DNA of 11,783 nucleotides from Candidatus Latescibacterota bacterium (GTDB lineage: Bacteria > Latescibacterota > UBA2968), in the NCBI GenBank assembly GCA_038279365.1, contig JAYODI010000125.1, positions 1-11,783 of the forward strand, written 5' to 3'. The notes beneath the pieces are model-generated. The model had not been told where the DNA came from. It searched no databases and saw only the letters and a program-made list of their open reading frames with translations. Below, piece after piece: positions 140-11,783 of this stretch (positions within the stretch are counted from its first letter, which is position 1; each line of letters starts with the position of its first letter). Both the position numbers and the translations under genes were made by a program.

Positions 140-1396
140 ATGTTTAAACGTTTTATGCTTTTCACCTGCGCATTGTTATTGGCAACTTCTGCCGTTCAAG
201 CGCAAAAAACAGCCAAAGTCGGCATCTTGCACTCTCTGAGTGGCACCATGGCCATTTCCGAAGTTTCCCTTAAAGATGTTGTGATGATGGCCATTGACGA
301 AATCAACGCATCGGGTGGTGTATTGGGCAAAAAGCTCGAACCCGTTGTTGTTGACCCTGCTTCCGACTGGGATCTCTTTGCCGAAAAAGCAAAGGAATTG
401 CTTGAAAAAGAAAAAGTGGATGTCACATTTGGTTGTTGGACATCCGTTTCTCGCAAATCTGTTTTGCCCGTCTATGAAGAAAAAAAGGGACTGCTCTTCT
501 ACCCTGTGCAATATGAAGGTGAAGAATGCTCACGCAACATCATCTACACAGGTGCAACCCCCAACCAACAGCTCATCCCTGCTGCAGAATATTTGATGAG
601 CAAAGACGGTGGTGGCTTTAAAAAGTTTTATCTCTTGGGCACAGACTATGTCTTCCCACGCACCGCCAACAAAATCTTACGTGCCTTCTTGTTGCACAGT
701 GGCGTGCCTGAAGAAAACATCATGGAAGAATACACACCCTTCCACCACCAAGACTATCAAACCATTGTGCAAAAAATCAAACGTTTTGCAGCCGATGGTG
801 ATGCCGCAGTGCTCTCCACCATCAATGGTGACTCCAATGTGCCATTCTACAAAGAGTTTGCCAACCAAGGTTTGACCTCTGCCATGTGTCCCATTATGGC
901 CTTCTCTGTCGCCGAAGATGAACTGCGCTCCATGGACACCGAATTTCTCGTGGGTCACTTGGCTGCTTGGAACTACTTCCAATCCATTAACACACCAGAA
1001 AACAAAGCCTTTGTGAAAAAGTTTAAAGACTACTGTGCAAAAATGGGCTTGCCTGGTGGTGCACAACGCGTCACAGATGATCCCATCGTGTGGTCTTATG
1101 TGGGTGTTTATTTGTGGAAAAAAGCAGTTGAAAAAGCCGGCTCTTTCGATGTAGACAAAGTACGTCCCGCACTTTACAGCCTCAAATTTGACGGCCCAGG
1201 CGGCACCGTGATGATGGACGGCATGAACCACCACTTGCACAAACCCGTTCTCATCGGTGAAATTCGCAAAGACGGCCAATTCAAAATCGTTTATGAAACC
1301 AAAGGGTTGGTTGCGCCCGATCCTTGGGACGACATCACCAGTGCAGACAAAGACTGTGACCACGTCAACTACATGGGCACATATACCGTTAAGTAA
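140..1396 (+). CDS. urtA: Urea ABC transporter periplasmic substrate-binding protein
   Basis: 418 aa with a signal peptide ending AVQA. UrtA-type motifs: VGILHSLSGTMAISE, FGCWTSVSRK, YPVQYEG, GTDYVFPRTAN, TINGDSN, HLAAWNYF. RBS AGGAG at 128-132. Heads a urt-ure cluster. Confidence 0.95.
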   Translation: MFKRFMLFTCALLLATSAVQAQKTAKVGILHSLSGTMAISEVSLKDVVMMAIDEINASGGVLGKKLEPVVVDPASDWDLFAEKAKELLEKEKVDVTFGCWTSVSRKSVLPVYEEKKGLLFYPVQYEGEECSRNIIYTGATPNQQLIPAAEYLMSKDGGGFKKFYLLGTDYVFPRTANKILRAFLLHSGVPEENIMEEYTPFHHQDYQTIVQKIKRFAADGDAAVLSTINGDSNVPFYKEFANQGLTSAMCPIMAFSVAEDELRSMDTEFLVGHLAAWNYFQSINTPENKAFVKKFKDYCAKMGLPGGAQRVTDDPIVWSYVGVYLWKKAVEKAGSFDVDKVRPALYSLKFDGPGGTVMMDGMNHHLHKPVLIGEIRKDGQFKIVYETKGLVAPDPWDDITSADKDCDHVNYMGTYTVK

Positions 1397-1435: not shown

Positions 1436-1470
1436 ACCTATCAATTTTAAATTAATTTATGGAGAAAAAG

Positions 1471-2367
1471 ATGAAAAAATGGATAATGAGTATTGCCGCA
1501 GCAGCTTTATTTGCAACACCATCGTTTGCACAAATCAAAGTGACAGATAATTTAAGTGTTACGGGTTTCTTCGACATGTCAACCACCTACAACACAGGCT
1601 CCAAAACCAACACCCTGTCCTTTGACCAATTTGAAATTGATTTCATGTATGAATACGGCATGTTTACCGGACAAGCCGATTTCAACAGCCTCGGCGGGGG
1701 TTCGGTCGATCTTGAACAAGCCTTTGTCACCTATACCTCACCCGGTGGTTTTAGCTTAACAGGTGGTAAATTCCTCAGTTGCTCAGGTTGGGAAACAGCC
1801 GAACCCACAGGTTTGTATCAATACTCTTATTCTGCAACGCTCGTATATGGTGGCTATCAAAACGGTGTAGCTGCAAGCTTTGGCAATGACAAAGTGGGCT
1901 TTTACGGTGCCGTCGTCAGCAGCGTTTGGAATGGTGCCGACACCAGCATGGACGATATGGGTTTTGAAGCACAAATTTCATTTATGCCCGCAGAAGGTAT
2001 TACCGCCAAGGTCGCTTATCTTTGGGAAGACATGGGTGCATTTAATCAATCACTCATCAATGCCTGGGGTATGTATGCCAAAGGTCCTATCACATTGGCC
2101 GCAGAATACAATCACCTCTTAGACTGGGGTGCCAAAGGCAACAACGGTTATGGTTGGATTTTGATGGGCAACATGGGCTTGTCTGACAAAGTTGCCGCCA
2201 CCGTGCGTTACAGTGGTCTCGACACAGACACCACCACAAAATTCACAGAAATCACCTTCAGCCCCAGCTATGTGGTCTCAGACAATGTGGGCATGTTGGC
2301 CGAAATTCGTCGCGACATCGACGCCAAAGTGACCTCATTTGCATTTGAAACCATCCTCTCGTTCTAA
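1471..2367 (+). CDS. Putative outer-membrane beta-barrel porin (BBP2/DUF1597-like), probable urea channel
   Basis: Signal peptide MKKWIMSIAAAALFATPSFA, alternating amphipathic strands, LEQAFVTY and GKFLS..GWE..EP motifs, and a C-terminal Phe. Start placed at 1471 because GGAG (1461-1464) is a well-spaced RBS; the ORF track starts at 1459. Confidence 0.8.
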   Translation: MKKWIMSIAAAALFATPSFAQIKVTDNLSVTGFFDMSTTYNTGSKTNTLSFDQFEIDFMYEYGMFTGQADFNSLGGGSVDLEQAFVTYTSPGGFSLTGGKFLSCSGWETAEPTGLYQYSYSATLVYGGYQNGVAASFGNDKVGFYGAVVSSVWNGADTSMDDMGFEAQISFMPAEGITAKVAYLWEDMGAFNQSLINAWGMYAKGPITLAAEYNHLLDWGAKGNNGYGWILMGNMGLSDKVAATVRYSGLDTDTTTKFTEITFSPSYVVSDNVGMLAEIRRDIDAKVTSFAFETILSF

Positions 2368-2633: not shown

Positions 2634-2674
2634 CCATATCTAACCATTAAAGCCCAACGCCACGAGATGTGACC

Positions 2675-4321
2675 ATGAAACCACTGATGTATAGTCTCTT
2701 ACTTCTTTTTTTGTCGTTTAATGCTCAAGCACAAGACGGTGCTTTTGACCAACAACAACTATCACTGCTGCGCAGCAATGATGAAGACAATATCGAAGCA
2801 GCTGTTAAAGCCATTGGTCAAAGCGGGCAAATAGCATATTACGACCTAATGAAAGCCTTATTTGGAGGTGAATTATACCTCACCGAACAAGGTCAGTTGG
2901 TTGTTGCTGGCAACACACGTAAAAACGATTATGGCGATACCATTTCGCAACTCAACTCGGCTTATCCTCAAAATACACCCTTGCTCGATGAAACAGGCAA
3001 ACCCATTGAGGTCAACCTTTATGACCTCATCGAAGTAGAAAGCAATCGCCGCATTCGCGCCATTATTCAGCCCTACCTTATACAGATGGAAATTTTTAAT
3101 CCCGATCCGATAAAACGCCGCGTTGCCGCCGAAACATTGGGCAACCAAGGCAACATCAATGCCATACCTACCCTTACCCAAGCCATCGAAAAAGAAACCA
3201 ATAAAGACATCAAAACCTTTATGCAAGTGGCACGTGCCAAATTACAATTGGCCCATACAGATACAAATGTTCGACTCGAAGCAGTCACTGCTTTAGGAGA
3301 ACTAAACGACACATTTGTCTTACCACTATTAGAAACACACGCCAAAACCGAAACCGATCCAGCCGTAAACACGGCGCTCACAGCCTCTATTCAATGGCTC
3401 AAAGAATTTACAGTCATCATGATGGCCGTACAAACAGCCTTTGTAGGTTTAAGTCTCGGTTCCATTCTCATCTTGGTCGCATTGGGTTTGGCCGTTATTT
3501 ACGGGCAAATGGGTGTCATCAATATGGCACACGGCGAATTTATGATGACGGGTGCCTACACCACCTATGTCATTCAAAACATTTGCTTCGCACTCTTGCC
3601 TGCTGCTTACATCGACGTCTTTTTTCCCATCTCCTTGCCACTTGCTTTTGTCATCTCAGGCAGTTTTGGTTTGCTTATCGAACGCCTCATCATTCGCCAT
3701 CTCTACAGTCGCCCACTCGAAAGCTTGCTTGCCACTTGGGGTGTTAGCCTTGTTTTGGTTCAATTGGCACGTAGCATCTTTGGCGATCTTACAGCAGTTA
3801 AGCTGCCCCAATGGCTTAGCGGTGGGTATGCTTTGGCCCCACAAGTTTTATTGCCTTACAACCGCCTCTTTATCATCGTTTTTACACTGCTCATAGTCGT
3901 GGGCCTCATTGCCTTCTTTTACAAAACCAACTTTGGCCTGCGATTACGCGCCGTTACACAAAACCGCAACATGAGTGCCTGCATGGGTGTACCCGTGCGC
4001 AGAGTGGACTCCCTCACCTTTTTTATTGGCACAGGCATTGCCGGTGTGGCCGGCTGGGCGATGACACTCATTGGCAACGTGGTACCTAACATGGGGCAAA
4101 CCTACATTGTTGATGCATTTCTCGTTGTGGTCGTAGGTGGTGTGGGCAAAATCATAGGCACCATTGTTGCCGGATTGGGCATTGGTATTTCCAACAAAGT
4201 GCTCGAACCCTTTGTGGAAGCGGTGTATGCCAAAGTGCTCATACTCGGTTTAATCATCATGTTTTTACAAGCAAACCCCACCGGCATCTTTCCTGCCAAA
4301 GGGAGAAACGAAGACCAATGA
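2675..4321 (+). CDS. urtB: Urea ABC transporter permease with N-terminal HEAT-like repeat periplasmic domain
   Basis: Signal peptide ending AQA, helical repeats (RRVAAETLG, VRLEAVTALG), then the permease motifs GLSLGSILILVALGLAVIYGQMGVINMAHGEF, LYSRPLESLLATWG and YIVDAFLVVVVGGVG. ATG 2675 preferred; in-frame GTG at 2669 is the alternative. Confidence 0.93.
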   Translation: MKPLMYSLLLLFLSFNAQAQDGAFDQQQLSLLRSNDEDNIEAAVKAIGQSGQIAYYDLMKALFGGELYLTEQGQLVVAGNTRKNDYGDTISQLNSAYPQNTPLLDETGKPIEVNLYDLIEVESNRRIRAIIQPYLIQMEIFNPDPIKRRVAAETLGNQGNINAIPTLTQAIEKETNKDIKTFMQVARAKLQLAHTDTNVRLEAVTALGELNDTFVLPLLETHAKTETDPAVNTALTASIQWLKEFTVIMMAVQTAFVGLSLGSILILVALGLAVIYGQMGVINMAHGEFMMTGAYTTYVIQNICFALLPAAYIDVFFPISLPLAFVISGSFGLLIERLIIRHLYSRPLESLLATWGVSLVLVQLARSIFGDLTAVKLPQWLSGGYALAPQVLLPYNRLFIIVFTLLIVVGLIAFFYKTNFGLRLRAVTQNRNMSACMGVPVRRVDSLTFFIGTGIAGVAGWAMTLIGNVVPNMGQTYIVDAFLVVVVGGVGKIIGTIVAGLGIGISNKVLEPFVEAVYAKVLILGLIIMFLQANPTGIFPAKGRNEDQ

Positions 4322-5406
4322 AAAACGCCACCAAACCACTCGTCATTTTTTGTCTATTCGGCATACTGGTTCCTATCCTCAATCACTTTGGCATTGTTTC
4401 AGACAACACCCTCAACCTGTGGGGGCGCTATTGCTGTTTTGCCATTGCGGCCTTAGGAGTTGATCTCATTTGGGGGTATACTGGTATCCTCTCGCTGTGC
4501 CAAGCCTTTTTCTTTTGTTTGGGCGGGTATGCCATTGGCATGCACATGTTGCTCAAAACAGGTACCAAAGGGGTTTATGGCAGTGCCCTACCTGACTTTA
4601 TGGTTTGGAACCAAGTTGAAAATTTGCCCTTATTTTGGGAGCCCTTTCACACCTTTCCCATATCACTTATGATGGTCATTGTCATCCCCGCGCTCATAGC
4701 CTTGGTATTTGGCTATCTCGCATTTCGCAGTCGTCTCAAAGGCGTCTACTTTGCCATCATTACCCAAGCACTTGCATTGGCCATGTGGCTCATCTTTTTG
4801 CGCAACGAAACCATGTTGGGTGGCACAAATGGTCTCACCGACTTTAAAACATTACTCGGTTTTGAACTGTCCGACCCAGCAACCAAACGTGGGCTCTACC
4901 TGGTTGCTTTACTCACACTCTTTGGGGCCTATTATTTTAGCAGATTTATCACCCAATCAAAATTGGGCCGCATCTTGGTGGCCATTCGCGATGGTGAAAT
5001 GCGTTTGCGCTTTATTGGCTATCCCATCACCCATTACAAAGTCTTCATCTTCATGATTGCCAGTATCATGGCGGCCGTTGGGGGCATGCTTTACGTGCCT
5101 CAAACTGGCATCATCACCCCAGGACGCATGGATGTGCAAGCCTCCATCGAAATGGTTGTTTGGACAGCCGTTGGGGGGCGCGGTACACTCATTGGTCCCA
5201 TCATTGGCGCCATCCTCATCAACCTCTTATACAGCTTCTTAACAGGGGCATTTCCTGGCACGTGGTTATACTTTTTAGGCTTTCTCTTTATCGGTGTGGT
5301 GCTCTTTTTTCCCGATGGCGTAACAGGCCTTTGGGCACGTGCAAAAGCGCTTTGGGCTTCCAAAACGAATGAAACCACCAAATCAGAACCCGCATTGGAA
5401 AAATAA
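4318..5406 (+). CDS. urtC: Urea ABC transporter permease
   Basis: Motifs DLIWGYTGILSL, LPDFMVWN, FRSRLKGVYFAIITQA, GGTNGLTDFK, SIEMVVWTAVGGRGTL. ATGA overlap with the urtB stop indicates translational coupling. Confidence 0.95.
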   Translation: MKNATKPLVIFCLFGILVPILNHFGIVSDNTLNLWGRYCCFAIAALGVDLIWGYTGILSLCQAFFFCLGGYAIGMHMLLKTGTKGVYGSALPDFMVWNQVENLPLFWEPFHTFPISLMMVIVIPALIALVFGYLAFRSRLKGVYFAIITQALALAMWLIFLRNETMLGGTNGLTDFKTLLGFELSDPATKRGLYLVALLTLFGAYYFSRFITQSKLGRILVAIRDGEMRLRFIGYPITHYKVFIFMIASIMAAVGGMLYVPQTGIITPGRMDVQASIEMVVWTAVGGRGTLIGPIIGAILINLLYSFLTGAFPGTWLYFLGFLFIGVVLFFPDGVTGLWARAKALWASKTNETTKSEPALEK

Positions 5407-5445: not shown

Positions 5446-6192
5446 ATGACAGAAGTACTCTTACATGTAAAAGACCTCACCGTCTCCTTCGAAGGATTTG
5501 TAGCCCTTAACTTGAGTGAGTTTTCTTTGCGAGAAAATGAACTGCGCGTGGTCATTGGTCCCAATGGCGCAGGAAAAACCACCTTTCTCGACGTCATTTG
5601 TGGCAAAACAAAACCCGATAGTGGACGCGTTCGTTTTCAAAACATTGAAATATCTCGCCTCCCTGAAAATGAAATTGTAGACATTGGCATTGGACGCAAA
5701 TTTCAAACCCCATCGGTCTTCACATCGCTCTCCGTGTACGAAAACCTCATGCTCGCCATGAAAACCGACCGCAGCGTCATAGCATCACTCTTTGCCAAAA
5801 TCAGCAACGAAGATCGCACCCACATCGAAAAGGTTGCCGAGCAAACGGGTCTTCACGAATACCTACAAAAAGAAGCCGGTTCTCTCTCACACGGCCAAAA
5901 ACAATGGCTCGAAATTGCCATGGTCATCTTACAAGACCCCAAACTCTTTCTCGTAGATGAACCCGCCGCTGGCATGACCGACGAAGAAACCTATAAAACC
6001 GGCGAACTCCTCGAACGCCTGTCTGAAGACCGCGCCATTATTGTCATTGAACACGACATGGAATTTGTGCGTCAAATAGCCCGCACCGTTACCGTGCTTC
6101 ACGAAGGCCAGTTGCTCGTTGAAGGCCCCATGCAACAAGTCCAAAACGATCCCCGTGTGATTGAGTGTTATTTGGGCAGTGCACAACATTAA
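5446..6192 (+). CDS. urtD: Urea ABC transporter ATP-binding protein
   Basis: Walker A GPNGAGKTT, GIGRKFQTPSVF, signature LSHGQKQWLEI, Walker B VDEP, TVLHEG. Confidence 0.95.
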   Translation: MTEVLLHVKDLTVSFEGFVALNLSEFSLRENELRVVIGPNGAGKTTFLDVICGKTKPDSGRVRFQNIEISRLPENEIVDIGIGRKFQTPSVFTSLSVYENLMLAMKTDRSVIASLFAKISNEDRTHIEKVAEQTGLHEYLQKEAGSLSHGQKQWLEIAMVILQDPKLFLVDEPAAGMTDEETYKTGELLERLSEDRAIIVIEHDMEFVRQIARTVTVLHEGQLLVEGPMQQVQNDPRVIECYLGSAQH

Positions 6193-6196
6193 AGGC

Positions 6197-6311
6197 CGAA
6201 TAGGAGAATAGGCGAATAGACGAATATACGAAAACCTTGCAACATACTTTGAGTAGAAGGATTCGCAGTTTCGTTGATTCGCAGTTTCGCAGTTTCGCAG
6301 TTTCGCAGTTT
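6197..6311. repeat. Convergent octamer tandem arrays, locus 2
   Basis: Left units CGAATAGG AGAATAGG CGAATAGA CGAATATA CGAAAACC (6197-6236). Right units TTCGCAGT x5 plus TTCGTTGA (6262-6309). 6260-6303 matches 2450-2493 at 43 of 44 nt. Confidence 0.9.
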
Positions 6312-6337
6312 CCTTTTTCCATTTCTTCGAGGTTTCC

Positions 6338-7060
6338 ATGAACGCCACCGCAAATAAAACCCTCCTCACTGTAGAAGACTTAGATGTCTATTACGGTGAA
6401 AGTCGCATCTTACGCGATGTCAAACTCGACATCACACAAGGTTCTATTATTGCCGTGATGGGCCGCAATGGCGTAGGCAAAACAACCCTCATGAAAGCCA
6501 TTATGGGTTTGTTGCCTGCGCGCAAAGGACACATCCATCTCAATGGCGAGAACATCACCCAATGGACACCTGATCTAAGAGCCCGAGCAGGCATTGGCAT
6601 TGTGCCACAAGGCCGCGAAATCTTCTCCAAATTATCAGTGCTCGAAAATCTACAGATAGGTCTTGAAGCACGCACCGATGGCCTCAAAACCATCCCCGAA
6701 GATTTGATCTACAGTCTCTTTCCTGTATTATCCGACATGAAACACAGAGCGGGTGGCAACCTCAGTGGGGGGCAACAACAACAACTCGCCATTGCACGTG
6801 CCCTTGTGGGTGATCCAGACATCCTCATCCTCGACGAGCCCACCGAAGGCATTCAACCTTCGATCATTCTTGAAATTGAAAAAATACTCTTGCGTCTCAA
6901 AGACGAAAGTGACCTCACCATCATTCTCGTTGAACAATATTTCGACTTTGCCCGACAAATTGCCGACTACTTTTATCTTATGGATCGTGGCAGCATAGCC
7001 CTACATGGCGCAGCAGAAGACTTGTCGGATGAAAGCATCAAAAAATACCTCACCTTTTAA
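6338..7060 (+). CDS. urtE: Urea ABC transporter ATP-binding protein
   Basis: Walker A GRNGVGKTT, VPQGREIF, signature LSGGQQQQLAIARAL, LDEPTEGIQPSII, LVEQYFDFA. RBS GAGG upstream. Confidence 0.95.
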   Translation: MNATANKTLLTVEDLDVYYGESRILRDVKLDITQGSIIAVMGRNGVGKTTLMKAIMGLLPARKGHIHLNGENITQWTPDLRARAGIGIVPQGREIFSKLSVLENLQIGLEARTDGLKTIPEDLIYSLFPVLSDMKHRAGGNLSGGQQQQLAIARALVGDPDILILDEPTEGIQPSIILEIEKILLRLKDESDLTIILVEQYFDFARQIADYFYLMDRGSIALHGAAEDLSDESIKKYLTF

Positions 7061-7228: not shown

Positions 7229-7245
7229 CGCGCACAACAAAGGAC
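7229..7245 (+). promoter_or_regulatory. 17-bp RBS-containing block, copy 1
   Basis: CGCGCACAACAAAGGAC ends 8 nt before the ATG at 7254. Identical to 10642-10658. Confidence 0.75.
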
Positions 7246-7253
7246 GACGCATT

Positions 7254-8003
7254 ATGCGCCTCTCGCCCAAAGAAATTGACAAACTCATCTTGCACAATGC
7301 TGGTTTTCTCGCCCAAAAGCGATATGCCCGAGGGCTCAAGCTCAACTACCCAGAAGCCACGGCTCTCATTGCCGCACAATTGCTCGAATTTATTCGCGAT
7401 GGTGAATCGGTAGCCACCCTCATGAACAAAGGCAAACAACTACTGGGCACCAACGACGTCTTACCTGGCGTACCGGAAATGGTTCACGAAGTACAAATAG
7501 AAGGCACCTTTCCCGACGGCACAAAACTTGTTACCGTGCACAACCCCATTTGCCGCGAAAATGGCGAGACAGAACTAGCTCTCTATGGCTCGGGCCTCAC
7601 ACGCACCCAAGCACCGTGGTCACCCGACAACATCTCTGCCAACACACCAGGCAAAACCACAGTAACAGACGAACCCATCACACTCAATACCGATCGCGAC
7701 ACGCTCACACTACCAGTCACAAACACGGGAGATCGTCCCATTCAGGTCGGTTCACACTACACCTTCTTCGAAGTTAACCCTGCCCTCTCCTTTGATCGCG
7801 AAAAGGCTTATGGTTATCGACTCAACATTGCCTCAGGCACGGCCGTGCGCTTTGAACCTGGAGAAACCAAATCTGTCGAACTGGTTGCCATCACAGGCAA
7901 CCGCATCGTCTACGGCGGCAATGCACTCATCTCTGGCGCATTAGACAAAAACAAAGAACAGGCCCTTAAAAACGCCACCGAAAGCGGATTTAAATCTGCA
8001 TAG
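7254..8003 (+). CDS. ureAB: Fused urease gamma/beta subunit
   Basis: Gamma domain ([38 protein letters not shown]) is joined in one ORF to the beta domain ([31 protein letters not shown]). Confidence 0.95.
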
Positions 8004-8064
8004 TTTCTTTAAAAAAATCTGTCTCTATCTGTGGTTTCAAAATATTTTCTTAAAAAGGTTTTTC

Positions 8065-9768
8065 ATGGCACAAATTGATCGCAACGCATATGCCGACATG
8101 TATGGCCCCACAACAGGCGACAAACTCCAATTGGGCGATACCAACCTCATCATAGAAGTGGAAAAAGACCACACCATCTACGGAGATGAATGCAAATTTG
8201 GCGGCGGTAAAGTACTGCGTGATGGCATGGGACAAGCCACAGGTGTGTCACAAAAAGACGCGCTGGATCTCGTTATCACCAACGCGCTCATCATCGACTA
8301 CACAGGCATCTACAAAGCCGACATCGGCATCAAAAATGGCCGCATCATTGGCATTGGCAAAGCAGGCAATCCCGACATCATGTCGGGTGTCAACAAAAAC
8401 ATGATCGTCGGTGTCACCACCGAAGTCATCGCAGGTGAAGGGCACATCATCACCGCAGGTGCACTCGACGTACACATCCACTTCATCTGTCCCCAACAAA
8501 TTGACGAAGCCATTGCCTCAGGCATTACCACCATGCTCGGAGGCGGCACAGGCCCCGCCACAGGCACCAATGCCACCACCTGCACACCCGGTGCCACACA
8601 CATTCGCCTGATGTTACAAGCCACCGACACCTACCCGCTCAACTTCGGTTTTTTAGGCAAAGGCAATTCCTCCTTACCCCAAGGCCTTACCGAACAAATT
8701 GAAGGCGGTGCCTGTGGCCTCAAACTGCACGAAGACTGGGGCACCACACCGGCCACCATCGACACCTGTTTGGCCATAGCCGATGACTATGACATACAAG
8801 TCTGCATACACACCGACACCCTCAACGAATCGGGCTTTGTAGAACAATCGGCCGCGGCCTTCAAAGGCCGCACCATTCATACCTATCACACCGAAGGCGC
8901 TGGCGGTGGGCACGCACCCGACATTATGCGTCTGTGTGCCGAAGCCAATGTCTTACCCTCATCCACCAACCCCACCCGCCCCTTTACCGTCAACACCATC
9001 GACGAACACTTAGACATGCTCATGGTGTGTCACCACTTAGACAAAAACATTCCCGAAGACGTCGCCTTTGCCGAAAGCCGCATTCGCCAAGAAACCATTG
9101 CGGCCGAAGACATCCTACACGACTTAGGTGCCCTCTCCATTATCGCCTCCGACAGCCAAGCCATGGGTCGCATTGGCGAAGTCATTTGCCGCACCTGGCA
9201 AACCGCACACAAAATGAAAATGCAACGTGGCTACTTGTTGGGAGACAGCAACAACGACAACCAACGCGTCAAACGCTACATTGCCAAATACACCATCAAC
9301 CCTGCCATAGCACACGGTCTCAACACAGACATCGGCTCTGTTGAAGTTGGCAAACTCGCCGACCTCGTCTTGTGGAAACCCGCTTTTTTTGGTGCCAAAC
9401 CCGAAATGATCATCAAAGGCGGCATCATTGCCCATGCCCAAATGGGTGACCCCAACGCCTCTATTCCCACACCCCAGCCCGTTTACCCACGCCCCATGTT
9501 TGGATCATTTGGCACAGCCGTAGGCCCCACATCACTCGCCTTTGTCTCCAATGCATCGCTCAACACAGTGGCCACCTATGGCCTATCCAAAAAAGCCGTT
9601 GCCGTACAAAACTGCCGCAACATTGGCAAAAAAGACATGCAACACAACACCCTCACACCCAACATACACATCGACCCAGAAACCTATCGCGTCACTGTCG
9701 ATGGTGAATTACTCACATGTGAGCCCGCAGTCAAGCTTCCATTGGCGCAACTTTATAACTTATTTTAA
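8065..9768 (+). CDS. ureC: Urease alpha (catalytic) subunit
   Basis: 567 aa with all active-site motifs intact: [22 protein letters not shown] (carbamylated Lys), [21 protein letters not shown], flap [16 protein letters not shown]. Confidence 0.98.
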
Positions 9769-9775
9769 GAAGGCA

Positions 9776-9949
9776 GTGAAACGCCAAATGTAGAATCTTT
9801 AAAATCTGTGAAATGCCAAACGTGAAACGCCAAATGTAAAACCTTTAAAATCAAAAAACAAAACCCCCAATATAGCACGCAATTAATAACCTGGTTGATT
9901 CGTTTGCCGTTTACCGTTTGCCGTTTACCGTTTGCCGTTTGCCATTTAT
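9776..9949. repeat. Convergent heptamer tandem arrays, locus 3, including a 31-bp direct repeat
   Basis: Left units of GTGAAAC/GCCAAAT type; 9776-9806 and 9822-9852 match at 29 of 31 nt. Right units CGTTTRC x6 (9901-9942) plus CATTTAT. Confidence 0.9.
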
Positions 9950-9971
9950 TTTAACTTGAGACCTCCAACCG

Positions 9972-10634
9972 ATGCTCTTCGACCTCCTCACACTCGCCGA
10001 CAGCAACTTACCCGTTGGCAGTTATGCCTTTTCCAATGGCTTAGAAGCGGCCAGCCACTTAGGCCTTTTATCCAGTACCGATCATTTACATGACTACATG
10101 ACAACCGCTATTTATAACACCGCCCAAAGTGAACTACCCTTTATACAGTCGTGTTATACAGCAAACACCTCTCTTTTAGACGACATATTACTTACTTACG
10201 ACGCCATGCTCACCACCCAAACCATGGCCCAAGCCAGTGCCGTACAGGGGCGCAACCTCATCCGCATCATGAACACCCTCTACCCATCTGATGCCATGAC
10301 TCAACTGCGCCAGACACTCATCAAACAAACCGTGCCCACGCATTACACCATTGTCTATGGCACCACATTTCACATCGCAGGGCTGGCTCTATTGCAAACC
10401 CAACAAATCTTCATGTATCAAATGTTACGTGACCAAATCAGTGCCGCGGTGCGCTTGGGCATCATCGGACCAATGGAAGCCGCCCAATTACAAAAACACC
10501 ACCATCAAACATGTGAAATGGCCATAGAGCAAACAACAGACACACCGTATACACATGCCACACGCAGTGCACCCCAAATAGACATCACCCAAAGCTTTCA
10601 CCAACACCTCTATTCACGCCTCTTTCAAAGCTAA
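9972..10634 (+). CDS. ureF: Urease accessory protein UreF
   Basis: N-terminal [32 protein letters not shown], and C-terminal [11 protein letters not shown]. Lies between ureC and ureG. Confidence 0.92.
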
Positions 10635-10641
10635 ATTTTGT

Positions 10642-10658
10642 CGCGCACAACAAAGGAC
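10642..10658 (+). promoter_or_regulatory. 17-bp RBS-containing block, copy 2
   Basis: CGCGCACAACAAAGGAC ends 5 nt before the ureG ATG. Identical to 7229-7245. Confidence 0.75.
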
Positions 10659-10663
10659 AAAAC

Positions 10664-11404
10664 ATGCACAATCACGATCACGACCATCACAGCCATGACC
10701 ACACCCACCCGCACACCCACGAACACCTCGACTCACCCGGTGACTTCACCCACCGCGACCCCATGCTTAAAAATCGCGACTTCACGCAACGTGCATTCAC
10801 CGTTGGCATTGGTGGCCCAGTTGGCTCAGGCAAGACCGCCCTCATGCGCGTCTTATGCGAAGCCCTACGCAACAAATACAGCCTCGGAGCTGTCACCAAT
10901 GACATCTTCACCCGAGAAGACGCCGAATTTTTATTGCGACACAAAGCCCTCGAAGCCGACCGCATCATTGGCGTTGAAACCGGTGGATGCCCACACGCCG
11001 CCATTCGCGAAGACATCTCCCTCAACCTCAACGCCCTCGAAGACCTCATGCTTCGCTTTGACAACAACATCGACCTCCTCTTGGTCGAAAGCGGTGGCGA
11101 CAACTTGGCAGCACACTTCAGCAAAGAACTCGTCGACTACGCCATCTACGTCATCGACGTCTCAGCAGGCGACAAAATCCCACGCAAAGGTGGCCCCGGC
11201 ATCACCCAATCGGACCTCCTCATCATCAACAAAACCGACCTTGCCGAACTCGTTGGCGCAGACCTCAGCGTCATGGAACACGACGCCCGCATGATGCGCG
11301 GCGAAGGCCCCACCATCTTCGCCTGCCTCAAACATAAATTTGGCCTCGACGAAATTATCGAACAAATATTCATCGCCCGCGATGCCGCCCTTGCGACGGC
11401 CTGA
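10664..11404 (+). CDS. ureG: Urease accessory GTPase UreG with His-rich N-terminal extension
   Basis: P-loop [18 protein letters not shown], metal-binding [31 protein letters not shown]-terminus is [21 protein letters not shown]. Confidence 0.97.
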
Positions 11405-11439
11405 TGCACCGAATTATGGAAATAAAAACAAATCGATCA

Positions 11440-11484
11440 GCACCGGAATAAATTCCGGTGCGAAGGTTGAAATGTCCTACGGAC
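11440..11484. repeat. REP-like double palindrome after ureG
   Basis: GCACCGGAAT-aa-ATTCCGGTGC (11440-11461) and GTCC-tac-GGAC (11474-11484), the latter reading GTCCGTAGGAC on the minus strand. Confidence 0.6.
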
Positions 11485-11730
11485 TTAAGATCAAAACATT
11501 GCCGGTTTATTGAAATAATATCCATCATTCCATTACTATGTTTGAAAAATCCTAAGGACGACATCCTTAAAACTTATCACATAAAAAAACACATCACACA
11601 CACAAAACCCATCACGCCAAACCATCATGATTTTCCGCGCCATTCCGTCTATCTCTTAATATTCTAAAAACGATAACGGTAGCAGGCCATTCATCCTCTT
11701 GTGCCCTCAAAAGGTATTTGCGGAAAATCA

Positions 11731-11762
11731 GCCCCCCCGGCACTTGAGGGGCGGCATTTTTT
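11731..11762 (+). terminator. Probable intrinsic terminator, possibly bidirectional
   Basis: GCCCCCCCGG-cac-TTGAGGGGCGGC is followed by ATTTTTT. GAAAATCA precedes the stem and gives a T-tract on the minus strand. Confidence 0.6.
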
Positions 11763-11783
11763 GCTTACTTTTTGTTGCTGTTG

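Follow-up and report, generated by a model that had tools for sequence, protein, structure and literature searches.

How the single-chain urease of eukaryotes originated, and how many chains its ancestor had, are listed as unanswered questions in the passages of a 2018 review that deal with urease architecture (PMC6077230). According to those passages, two-subunit ureases have so far been found only in Helicobacter, and a phylogenetic study favored a transition from three chains to one in which the two-chain form of Helicobacter was not an intermediate (PMC6077230). The question is raised again by a stretch of DNA of 11,783 nucleotides (nt), hereafter the window, which is an entire contig (C163) of a Latescibacterota assembly (6.03 Mb, 199 contigs, 98.5% complete) and carries a urease operon with a fused gamma-beta gene, ureAB, and a separate ureC. 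Judged by sequence, this operon shows that there is a second, widespread two-chain form of urease: its linker, the tail of UreAB, an N-terminal extension of UreG and the lack of UreE match the eukaryotic system, and three gene sets place it with the eukaryotes. A search of the full-text literature, subscription journals not being covered, returned no paper linking two-chain bacterial ureases to the eukaryotic enzyme.

The structural genes of the window and their parts are the following.

7254..8003, + strand: ureAB, fused gamma-beta urease subunit of 249 amino acids (aa) in a single open reading frame (ORF); NF009671, 335 bits (cut-off 243)

7254..7550, + strand: gamma domain, UreAB residues 1-99; Pfam PF00547 Urease_gamma

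7551..7646, + strand: gamma-beta linker of the eukaryotic type, UreAB residues 100-131; unbroken alignment to plant linkers

7647..7937, + strand: beta domain, UreAB residues 132-228; Pfam PF00699 Urease_beta

7938..8003, + strand: C-terminal tail of UreAB, residues 229-249, and stop codon; aligned to jack bean urease up to its residue 246

8065..9768, + strand: ureC, alpha (catalytic) subunit of 567 aa; TIGR01792, 957 bits (cut-off 680); Pfam Urease_alpha and Amidohydro_1

The Pfam matches to gamma (1-99) and beta (132-228) lie in one ORF, which confirms the fusion and leaves about 32 residues for the linker. PF00547, PF00699, PF00449 and PF01979 were all matched far above their cut-offs in UreAB and UreC, which gives a complete set of urease domains. 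The translation of UreC contains SDSQAMGR and the other expected metal-site motifs intact; these motifs we take to be the nickel ligands and the flap, with roles as in Klebsiella urease. The window is predicted to encode an active two-chain nickel urease.

The best match of UreAB in the PDB was jack bean urease (3LA4), in one stretch that aligns residues 1-244 with 1-246 (E 7e-84, 284 bits). Residues 274-840 of the same protein were the best match of UreC (874 bits), followed by Klebsiella (835), Sporosarcina pasteurii (820) and H. pylori (817). The eukaryotic single-chain enzyme (3LA4, and 4G7E from pigeon pea) is thus colinear with UreAB plus UreC over gamma, linker, beta, tail and alpha. 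In contrast to it, the window enzyme consists of two polypeptides, as ureC starts at 8065, 61 nt past the stop codon of ureAB (8001-8003) and in a different frame, and its genes lie in one operon with a urea ATP-binding cassette (ABC) transporter.

UreC was 64-72% identical to 21 eukaryotic ureases. Among the 120 longer UreAB matches listed, the named proteins were all eukaryotic (53-60% identity over 92-100% of the query) and came from corals, a sea anemone, a sea urchin, Vitrella, oomycetes, fungi, and plants from Klebsormidium to angiosperms. In an exhaustive search of UreAB against 1.84 billion cluster representatives, the best matches were mostly linker-bearing proteins, many of odd length. 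Many of these look like fragments of eukaryotic genes, because of their targeting-like N-termini and abrupt ends. A close-identity search with UreC was discarded as a view of the eukaryotes: all 120 listed matches were bacterial UreC proteins at 80% identity or more.

The junctions between the domains were then compared in an alignment of 14 two-chain pairs and six eukaryotic ureases. The linker of UreAB aligned residue by residue, with no break, to those of jack bean (3LA4) and pigeon pea (4G7E), and a gamma-beta linker was common to all six eukaryotes, the window and the 13 other two-chain bacteria. The tail of UreAB could be aligned to the beginning of the beta-alpha connector of eukaryotes, as far as a common G-F-x-H motif. 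These alignments show that, as far as sequence can tell, the gamma-beta linker and the UreAB tail are homologous to the eukaryotic connectors. Two versions of the linker could be distinguished: GSGLTR...PWSPDN in the window and its relatives (clade A in the trees below), and LALYGSFLPVP, with GSFLPVP at the place in question, in the eukaryotes and the bacteria grouped with them (clade B).

A first-pass annotation of the window had proposed this likeness by comparison with plant sequences. All strings that it quoted, from UreAB, UreG and the UreF ending LYSRLFQS, were present in the table-11 translations at the positions given for them, and the jack bean strings LHNAGYLAQKR and HDPISRENGELQEALFGS were seen in PDB 3LA4. 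The plant UreG motif that it cited was recovered in a Lupinus UreG (P0502) as APHSHEPIYSPGFFTRRAPPLLNRDFNERAFTIGIGGPVG. Its remark that the gamma subunits of three-chain ureases end at about this point also held, as the 100-aa gamma chains of Klebsiella and Sporosarcina in the PDB match UreAB residues 1-99 only.

The gap between the two genes was found to vary. In six relatives ureC starts just 4-9 nt past the stop codon of ureAB, against 61 nt in the window. In seven loci (L088-L094, from G076, G072, G086, G057, G071, G099 and G296; six Latescibacterota genomes and one of Planctomycetota), ureAB and ureC shared a reading frame, interrupted by just one or two stop codons, and the eukaryotic query urease matched across these loci from residue 1 to 838. 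A different two-chain architecture, with beta and alpha fused and gamma separate, was seen in L113 (G604, Pseudomonadota; 687 aa) and in L055 (Neisseria dentiae; 691 aa). The former was placed in the three-chain part of the structural tree.

The gamma-beta fusion might also be explained if the operon encoded an ordinary bacterial bifunctional gamma/beta urease, or one of the Helicobacter type, with no special tie to eukaryotes. UreAB does score above the cut-off of NF009671 (PRK13192, 'bifunctional urease subunit gamma/beta') and matches the whole 231-position profile, so fused gamma-beta proteins, also outside Helicobacter, are already catalogued; the profile cannot accommodate a linker of about 32 residues, however, and its name is silent on eukaryotic kinship. 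In a quick tree of gamma plus beta only (74 rows), eukaryotes and long-linker two-chain rows formed one group (SH-aLRT, the Shimodaira-Hasegawa-like approximate likelihood ratio test, 99). Nine short-linker fused proteins (eight of them with linkers of 5-14 aa), all above the NF009671 cut-off, fell elsewhere on long branches, far from the group of the window, and their fusions are therefore separate events.

Helicobacter itself shares the gamma-beta fusion plus alpha chain and the nickel enzyme (H. pylori UreA/UreB, 1E9Z). Its UreA has a short, unrelated linker and aligned with UreAB in two stretches (233 bits), with chain residue 107 placed at query residue 131 and no match across the linker. 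The window proteins fell below the cut-offs of the Helicobacter equivalogs, with 273 against 353 bits for UreA (NF010592) and 904.8 against 1083 bits for UreB (NF010591), so that an assignment to the Helicobacter type failed. The match of H. pylori UreG (199 aa) begins at query residue 46, so that this protein has no N-terminal extension; Helicobacter also uses UreE. None of the 15 fused representatives scanned scored above a Helicobacter equivalog cut-off, and the comparison with Helicobacter therefore rests on PDB scores and NCBIfam cut-offs only. The classical three-chain enzymes with UreDEFG of Klebsiella aerogenes and S. pasteurii have the same domains and catalytic motifs as the window. 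They differ in their separate gamma and beta genes and in a UreG without extension, and UreE is present in such systems. Taken as a whole, an ordinary or Helicobacter-type urease is a very improbable description of the window.

The fused form was next counted in other genomes. In 80 related loci (one genome per species), gamma and beta were fused with a long linker in 20, namely 18 of Latescibacterota and 2 of Planctomycetota. One locus began inside beta, and in the other 59 gamma and beta were in separate ORFs or one match was missing. Across the genomes sampled, the fused form was present in 32 of 121 Latescibacterota, at least 14 of 251 Planctomycetota and 1 of 251 Bacteroidota; in a second Bacteroidota genome UreC and UreF were clade-like, the contig that bears them being too short for gamma-beta to be seen. 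A reciprocal search with Klebsormidium urease (P0356) against the sampled prokaryotic genomes of seven phyla gave these matches (genomes matched and E threshold; identity and score of alpha).

Latescibacterota: 32 of 121, E 1e-30; 68-72%, 880-921 bits

Planctomycetota: 16 of 251, E 1e-30; two-chain alpha 69-75%, 888-974 bits

Bacteroidota: 3 of 251, E 1e-258; 71% in two genomes, 931-937 bits

Cyanobacteriota: 38 of 151, E 1e-258; up to 71%, 907 bits

Pseudomonadota: 119 of 401, E 1e-240; up to 69%, 891 bits

Bacillota: 1 of 301, E 1e-258; 65%, 863 bits

Actinomycetota: 0 of 301, E 1e-258; none

The higher scores of several phyla are not comparable, as they arose where a match read through neighboring beta and alpha genes; the third Bacteroidota match also reads through beta and alpha. 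The matches in Latescibacterota were confined to two families (f1, 20 of 28 genomes; f3, 11 of 41), and gamma and beta were matched there as one piece wherever the N-terminal part was matched. In the best Planctomycetota forms, gamma-beta was 62-67% identical to the Klebsormidium query. Three Planctomycetota genomes (G296, G313 and G330) each had an ordinary urease in addition to the two-chain one, its alpha chain being 61-62% identical to the same query. As scores alone separated the groups poorly, trees were needed.

Maximum-likelihood trees were built from the joined gamma, beta plus tail, and alpha segments, with the linker columns excluded. A quick tree of 47 rows already split the eukaryotes and two-chain bacteria from 19 three-chain rows (SH-aLRT 100). 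The final structural tree comprised 67 rows (20 eukaryotes, 18 two-chain and 29 three-chain bacteria) and 785 columns and was computed under LG+C20+F+G4 with posterior mean site frequencies (PMSF); support is given as a pair of values, from SH-aLRT and ultrafast bootstrap. The eukaryotes were 19 of the 120 longer matches listed and one representative (P0130). Many near-duplicate loci of Pasteurellaceae and Latescibacterota were excluded from this tree, as were further loci from genomes already represented and the incomplete L116, and P0151 (817 aa, alpha part just 36% identical) and P0271 were also kept out of the trees.

The 29 three-chain rows were separated from the 20 eukaryotes and 18 two-chain rows by a branch with 100/100 support. 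On the eukaryotic side two clades were resolved. Clade A (99/96) includes the window and consists of seven Latescibacterota rows (100/98), the fused Bacteroidota locus and two Planctomycetota rows. Clade B (100/99) is made up of the 20 eukaryotes with eight Planctomycetota rows, the first branches within it being L095/L133 and L018/L099 of Planctomycetota. The Planctomycetota of clade B (L018, L095, L099, L101, L102, L132-L134) resemble the window in having a two-chain urease, the UreG extension and no UreE found; their UreC is 72-75% and their gamma domain 60-75% identical to that of the window. They differ in the eukaryotic LALYGSFLPVP linker motif, in their grouping with the eukaryotes and, in several loci, in the position of ureD upstream of ureAB. 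No published description of the two-chain ureases of Planctomycetota was found.

The accessory genes of the window were analyzed in the same manner.

10664..11404, + strand: ureG, GTPase of 246 aa; TIGR00101, 292 bits over residues 46-235

10664..10792, + strand: N-terminal extension of UreG, residues 1-43; His-rich run and conserved motif

9972..10634, + strand: ureF, accessory protein of 220 aa; Pfam PF01730, E 3e-22

The extension of UreG displays the motif H-x-H-x-H-E ... (D/E)-S-P-G-x-F ... R-D-F-x-x-R. It was common to the window, 13 other two-chain operons, six further bacterial UreGs and 15 eukaryotic UreGs, and it was found in none of the 16 UreGs from three-chain operons, which start just before the P-loop. 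The eukaryotic UreGs had been retrieved with a 150-aa part of the window UreG among proteins of at least 264 aa, and the named ones, of fungal, oomycete, plant and bivalve origin, showed 53-72% identity, nearly all over the full fragment. A tree of the UreG core (194 columns, 51 rows, extension columns excluded) separated the 16 three-chain rows from the other 35 (15 eukaryotes, 14 two-chain and six further bacterial rows) with 100/100 on a branch of length 0.69. Latescibacterota stood near the base of the eukaryotic-side group, and the eukaryotes were joined with three clade-B Planctomycetota rows (98/96). The UreGs of Fibrobacterota metagenome-assembled genomes (MAGs; P0423 and P0436), which were retrieved with the 150-aa fragment too, bear the N-terminal motif and branched between clades A and B in this tree. 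An Atlas look-up of UreG returned a mixed list of Verrucomicrobiota, Myxococcota and Eukaryota, which is a lead to unsampled phyla and not evidence.

UreE (UreE_C and UreE_N, PF05194 and PF02814) was not found in the genome of the window (G000) or in six other two-chain genomes (G001-G005 and G126), while control genomes were matched; absence from incomplete genomes is not proof. In the passages of a study on Cryptococcus that deal with nickel handling, UreE is reported to be absent from plants and fungi, the UreG homologue Ure7 binds nickel via its His-rich N-terminus, and urease activity is abolished when a conserved His site in the N-terminal part of Ure7 is mutated to Ala (PMC3663189). That site, we infer, corresponds to the H-x-H-x-H-E motif of the extension. 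By analogy with the fungal protein, the extension of the window UreG is expected to bind nickel itself, and the window urease is probably matured without UreE.

A UreD tree of 40 rows, to which the genome of the window contributes no sequence, was in line with the other two. The 25 three-chain rows were separated from 15 rows comprising the two-chain relatives and the single eukaryote (100/99), and clade A was again separate (94/94). The eukaryote, the UreD part of a Closterium gene model (P0363), fell inside clade-B Planctomycetota (98/95) on a long branch (1.51). In this model, of 1629 aa, a UreD domain (residues 1394-1578) comes after a complete urease, which suggests either that the two genes are neighbors in the alga or that the gene model is a merged one.

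As for UreF, the window protein was 20-28% identical to UreFs of three-chain operons against 30-61% to those of two-chain operons. The ending LYSRLFQS, which the first-pass annotation had listed, is present and yet uninformative: the pattern LY(S/T)RL(F/Y)xS is generic, as it occurs in 11 of 13 three-chain-operon UreFs, and the remaining two, of cyanobacteria, read KLSRRLFAS.

Several observations weigh against a close tie of the window operon to the eukaryotic system. Identity separates the groups poorly, and cyanobacterial alpha chains score like those of Latescibacterota against Klebsormidium. Seven phyla were sampled, and the trees are without Helicobacter, archaea, Verrucomicrobiota and Myxococcota; the eukaryotic accessory proteins are represented by one UreD and no UreF, besides UreG. 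The trees are unrooted, and the root among three-chain ureases is an assumption, made because that form was seen in most phyla here. The backbone of clade B is weak (56-82), with four Planctomycetota rows among the eukaryotes, and the eukaryotes were one clade in none of 200 bootstrap trees. An exclusive clade of Latescibacterota and eukaryotes costs 95.9 log-likelihood (lnL) units and was rejected by the approximately unbiased (AU) test (p-AU 1.9e-5). Finally, UreD was not found in the window assembly with the Pfam family and the UreD of a relative as queries, nor in a genome of the same genus (G080). In other Latescibacterota genera ureD overlaps the stop codon of ureG. Either this genus has lost ureD, and the enzyme may then be impossible to activate in it, or the gene sits in DNA that escaped assembly.

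The sampling gaps could be taken to mean that the grouping is an artefact of sampling or of the model, in which the true relative of the eukaryotes is an unsampled three-chain lineage, the gamma-beta fusions are separate, and the trees reflect a limited choice of three-chain rows or shared slow evolution. The small differences in identity, the whole phyla and all archaea missing from the trees, and the choice of part of the three-chain rows by peptide patterns of the query are compatible with this. However, the three-chain rows included the best matches to eukaryotic urease from 401 Pseudomonadota, 151 Cyanobacteriota, 301 Bacillota and 251 Bacteroidota genomes, and under a site-heterogeneous model even these stood across the 100/100 branch. 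The same split is marked by the linker and the UreG extension, neither of which was used in the trees, and linker-bearing proteins made up most of the best UreAB matches in the large set of representatives. An artefact is therefore considered unlikely.

The window operon is thus likely to be a clade-A member of a eukaryote-type two-chain urease lineage, sister to the clade B that holds the eukaryotes; it is put no more strongly because of the sampling gaps and the unrooted trees. The first-pass annotation had assigned the operon to a lineage close to the source of eukaryotic urease. This is borne out insofar as urease and UreG, and the UreD of relatives, lie on the eukaryotic side, away from all three-chain rows in the three trees (29, 16 and 25), so that a grouping with ordinary three-chain ureases did not occur. 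It has to be amended in that Latescibacterota are not the sister group: their direct sisterhood to eukaryotes, which that annotation had named as the supporting outcome if seen congruently in the trees, was rejected, and clade B of Planctomycetota is closer. Its suggestion of an intermediate in subunit fusion remains plausible, as the two-chain form has the architecture expected of one, given its side of the trees and the homology of linker and tail to the eukaryotic connectors.

The same topology bears on the direction of transfer. A single-chain urease and its accessory genes could have moved from eukaryotes into bacteria, where they were split into ureAB and ureC and gathered into an operon. 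The Planctomycetota rows among the eukaryotes in the structural tree, the three such rows inside the eukaryotic group of the UreG tree, the failure of the eukaryotes to form one clade in the bootstrap trees and the fact that no tree infers the root would all agree with this. Yet eukaryote monophyly costs only 10.9 lnL units and was not rejected (p-AU 0.198). Under a three-chain root, clade A and the earliest branches of clade B (L095/L133 and L018/L099) are all bacterial, and three separate genes (structural, UreG and UreD) agree. Urease and accessory genes are unlinked in fungi. In the bacteria they are found beside urt genes, in tight operons on complete chromosomes. To cut the gene precisely at the domain border and then bring four genes together again would take many more steps. 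Transfer in this direction is regarded as decidedly improbable.

The closest relatives of the window among named records were Candidatus Latescibacterota MAGs, one of which (L001) coincides with the contig of a genome of the same genus. The genes form one co-directional cluster on the + strand, in the order urtA, porin, urtBCDE, ureAB, ureC, ureF and ureG. Apart from the urease genes, it comprises the following features.

140..1396, + strand: urtA, substrate-binding protein of the urea ABC transporter; TIGR03407, 589 bits (cut-off 492.75), and Pfam Peripla_BP_5

1459..2367, + strand: outer-membrane beta-barrel porin (BBP2/OmpL-like) within the urt cluster; Pfam PF07642, E 2.7e-8

2669..4321, + strand: urtB, permease with an N-terminal HEAT-repeat extension of about 250 aa; TIGR03409, 396 bits (cut-off 250.3) over residues 255-546

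4318..5406, + strand: urtC, permease; Pfam BPD_transp_2, named from its position within the urt cluster

5446..6192, + strand: urtD, ATPase; Pfam ABC_tran and BCA_ABC_TP_C

6338..7060, + strand: urtE, ATPase; Pfam ABC_tran

9769..9971: spacer between ureC and ureF, with short tandem and paired repeats

11405..11783: non-coding stretch of about 380 nt up to the contig end, without ureD

An Urt transporter was recognized, with UrtA and UrtB above their equivalog cut-offs, two permeases and two ATPases. Ahead of its permease domain, UrtB has a signal-like start and HEAT/PBS-lyase repeats (residues 1-250, positions 2669-3430), with HEAT_2 and HEAT_PBS matches in Pfam on residues 150-240. From its position alone, the porin may have a role in the entry of urea. 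Urea would pass the porin and the Urt transporter and then be hydrolyzed by the two-chain nickel urease; maturation of the enzyme would involve UreF, UreG and, in relatives, UreD, with the extension of UreG replacing UreE as the nickel carrier.

A promoter and terminator scan of the window gave counts not above those of shuffled sequence, and therefore no transcription units are claimed. Near-identical arrays of 8-nt tandem units (GATTCGCA / GTTTCGCA) were observed at 2434-2509, before urtB, and at 6252-6335, between urtD and urtE. In the spacer between ureC and ureF, a 31-nt pair at 9776 and 9822 (9776-9852; spacing 46 nt) is followed by repeated 7-nt units (CGTTTGC / CGTTTAC) at 9901-9949. 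A 24-nt stretch just before the ureAB start (7229-7252) has an 88% identical copy upstream of ureG (10642-10665).

With a root among the three-chain ureases, the most economical reading of these data would be a path of three steps. Gamma and beta would have been fused once, in a bacterium, and the loss of UreE and the extension of UreG would likewise have arisen once in bacteria. The two-chain, UreE-less operon would then have spread among Latescibacterota, Planctomycetota and some Bacteroidota. Lastly, a clade-B version like those of Planctomycetota would have given rise to the eukaryotic system, in which the joining of beta and alpha produced the single chain; the eukaryotes would thus stem from inside clade B or from a neighbor of it. 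On balance we favor, with some reserve, the reading that the whole eukaryotic system (the enzyme, UreD, UreF and a nickel-binding UreG in place of UreE) came down as a block from a bacterial operon of the Planctomycetota kind, two-chain and devoid of UreE, with the Latescibacterota kind standing one step further out. The number of chains would accordingly have gone from three to two to one, and the fusion of gamma and beta would predate the eukaryotes.

If this block inheritance is true, it amends the published view of two-chain ureases, in which they belong to Helicobacter only and are not intermediates. The donor lineage of eukaryotic urease can be narrowed by denser sampling. As ureAB and ureC are in frame in some natural operons, separated by a single stop codon, the joining of beta and alpha can be mimicked at the bench. 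The operon would also offer a simple bacterial model for the UreE-independent delivery of nickel by a His-rich UreG, as in plants and fungi.

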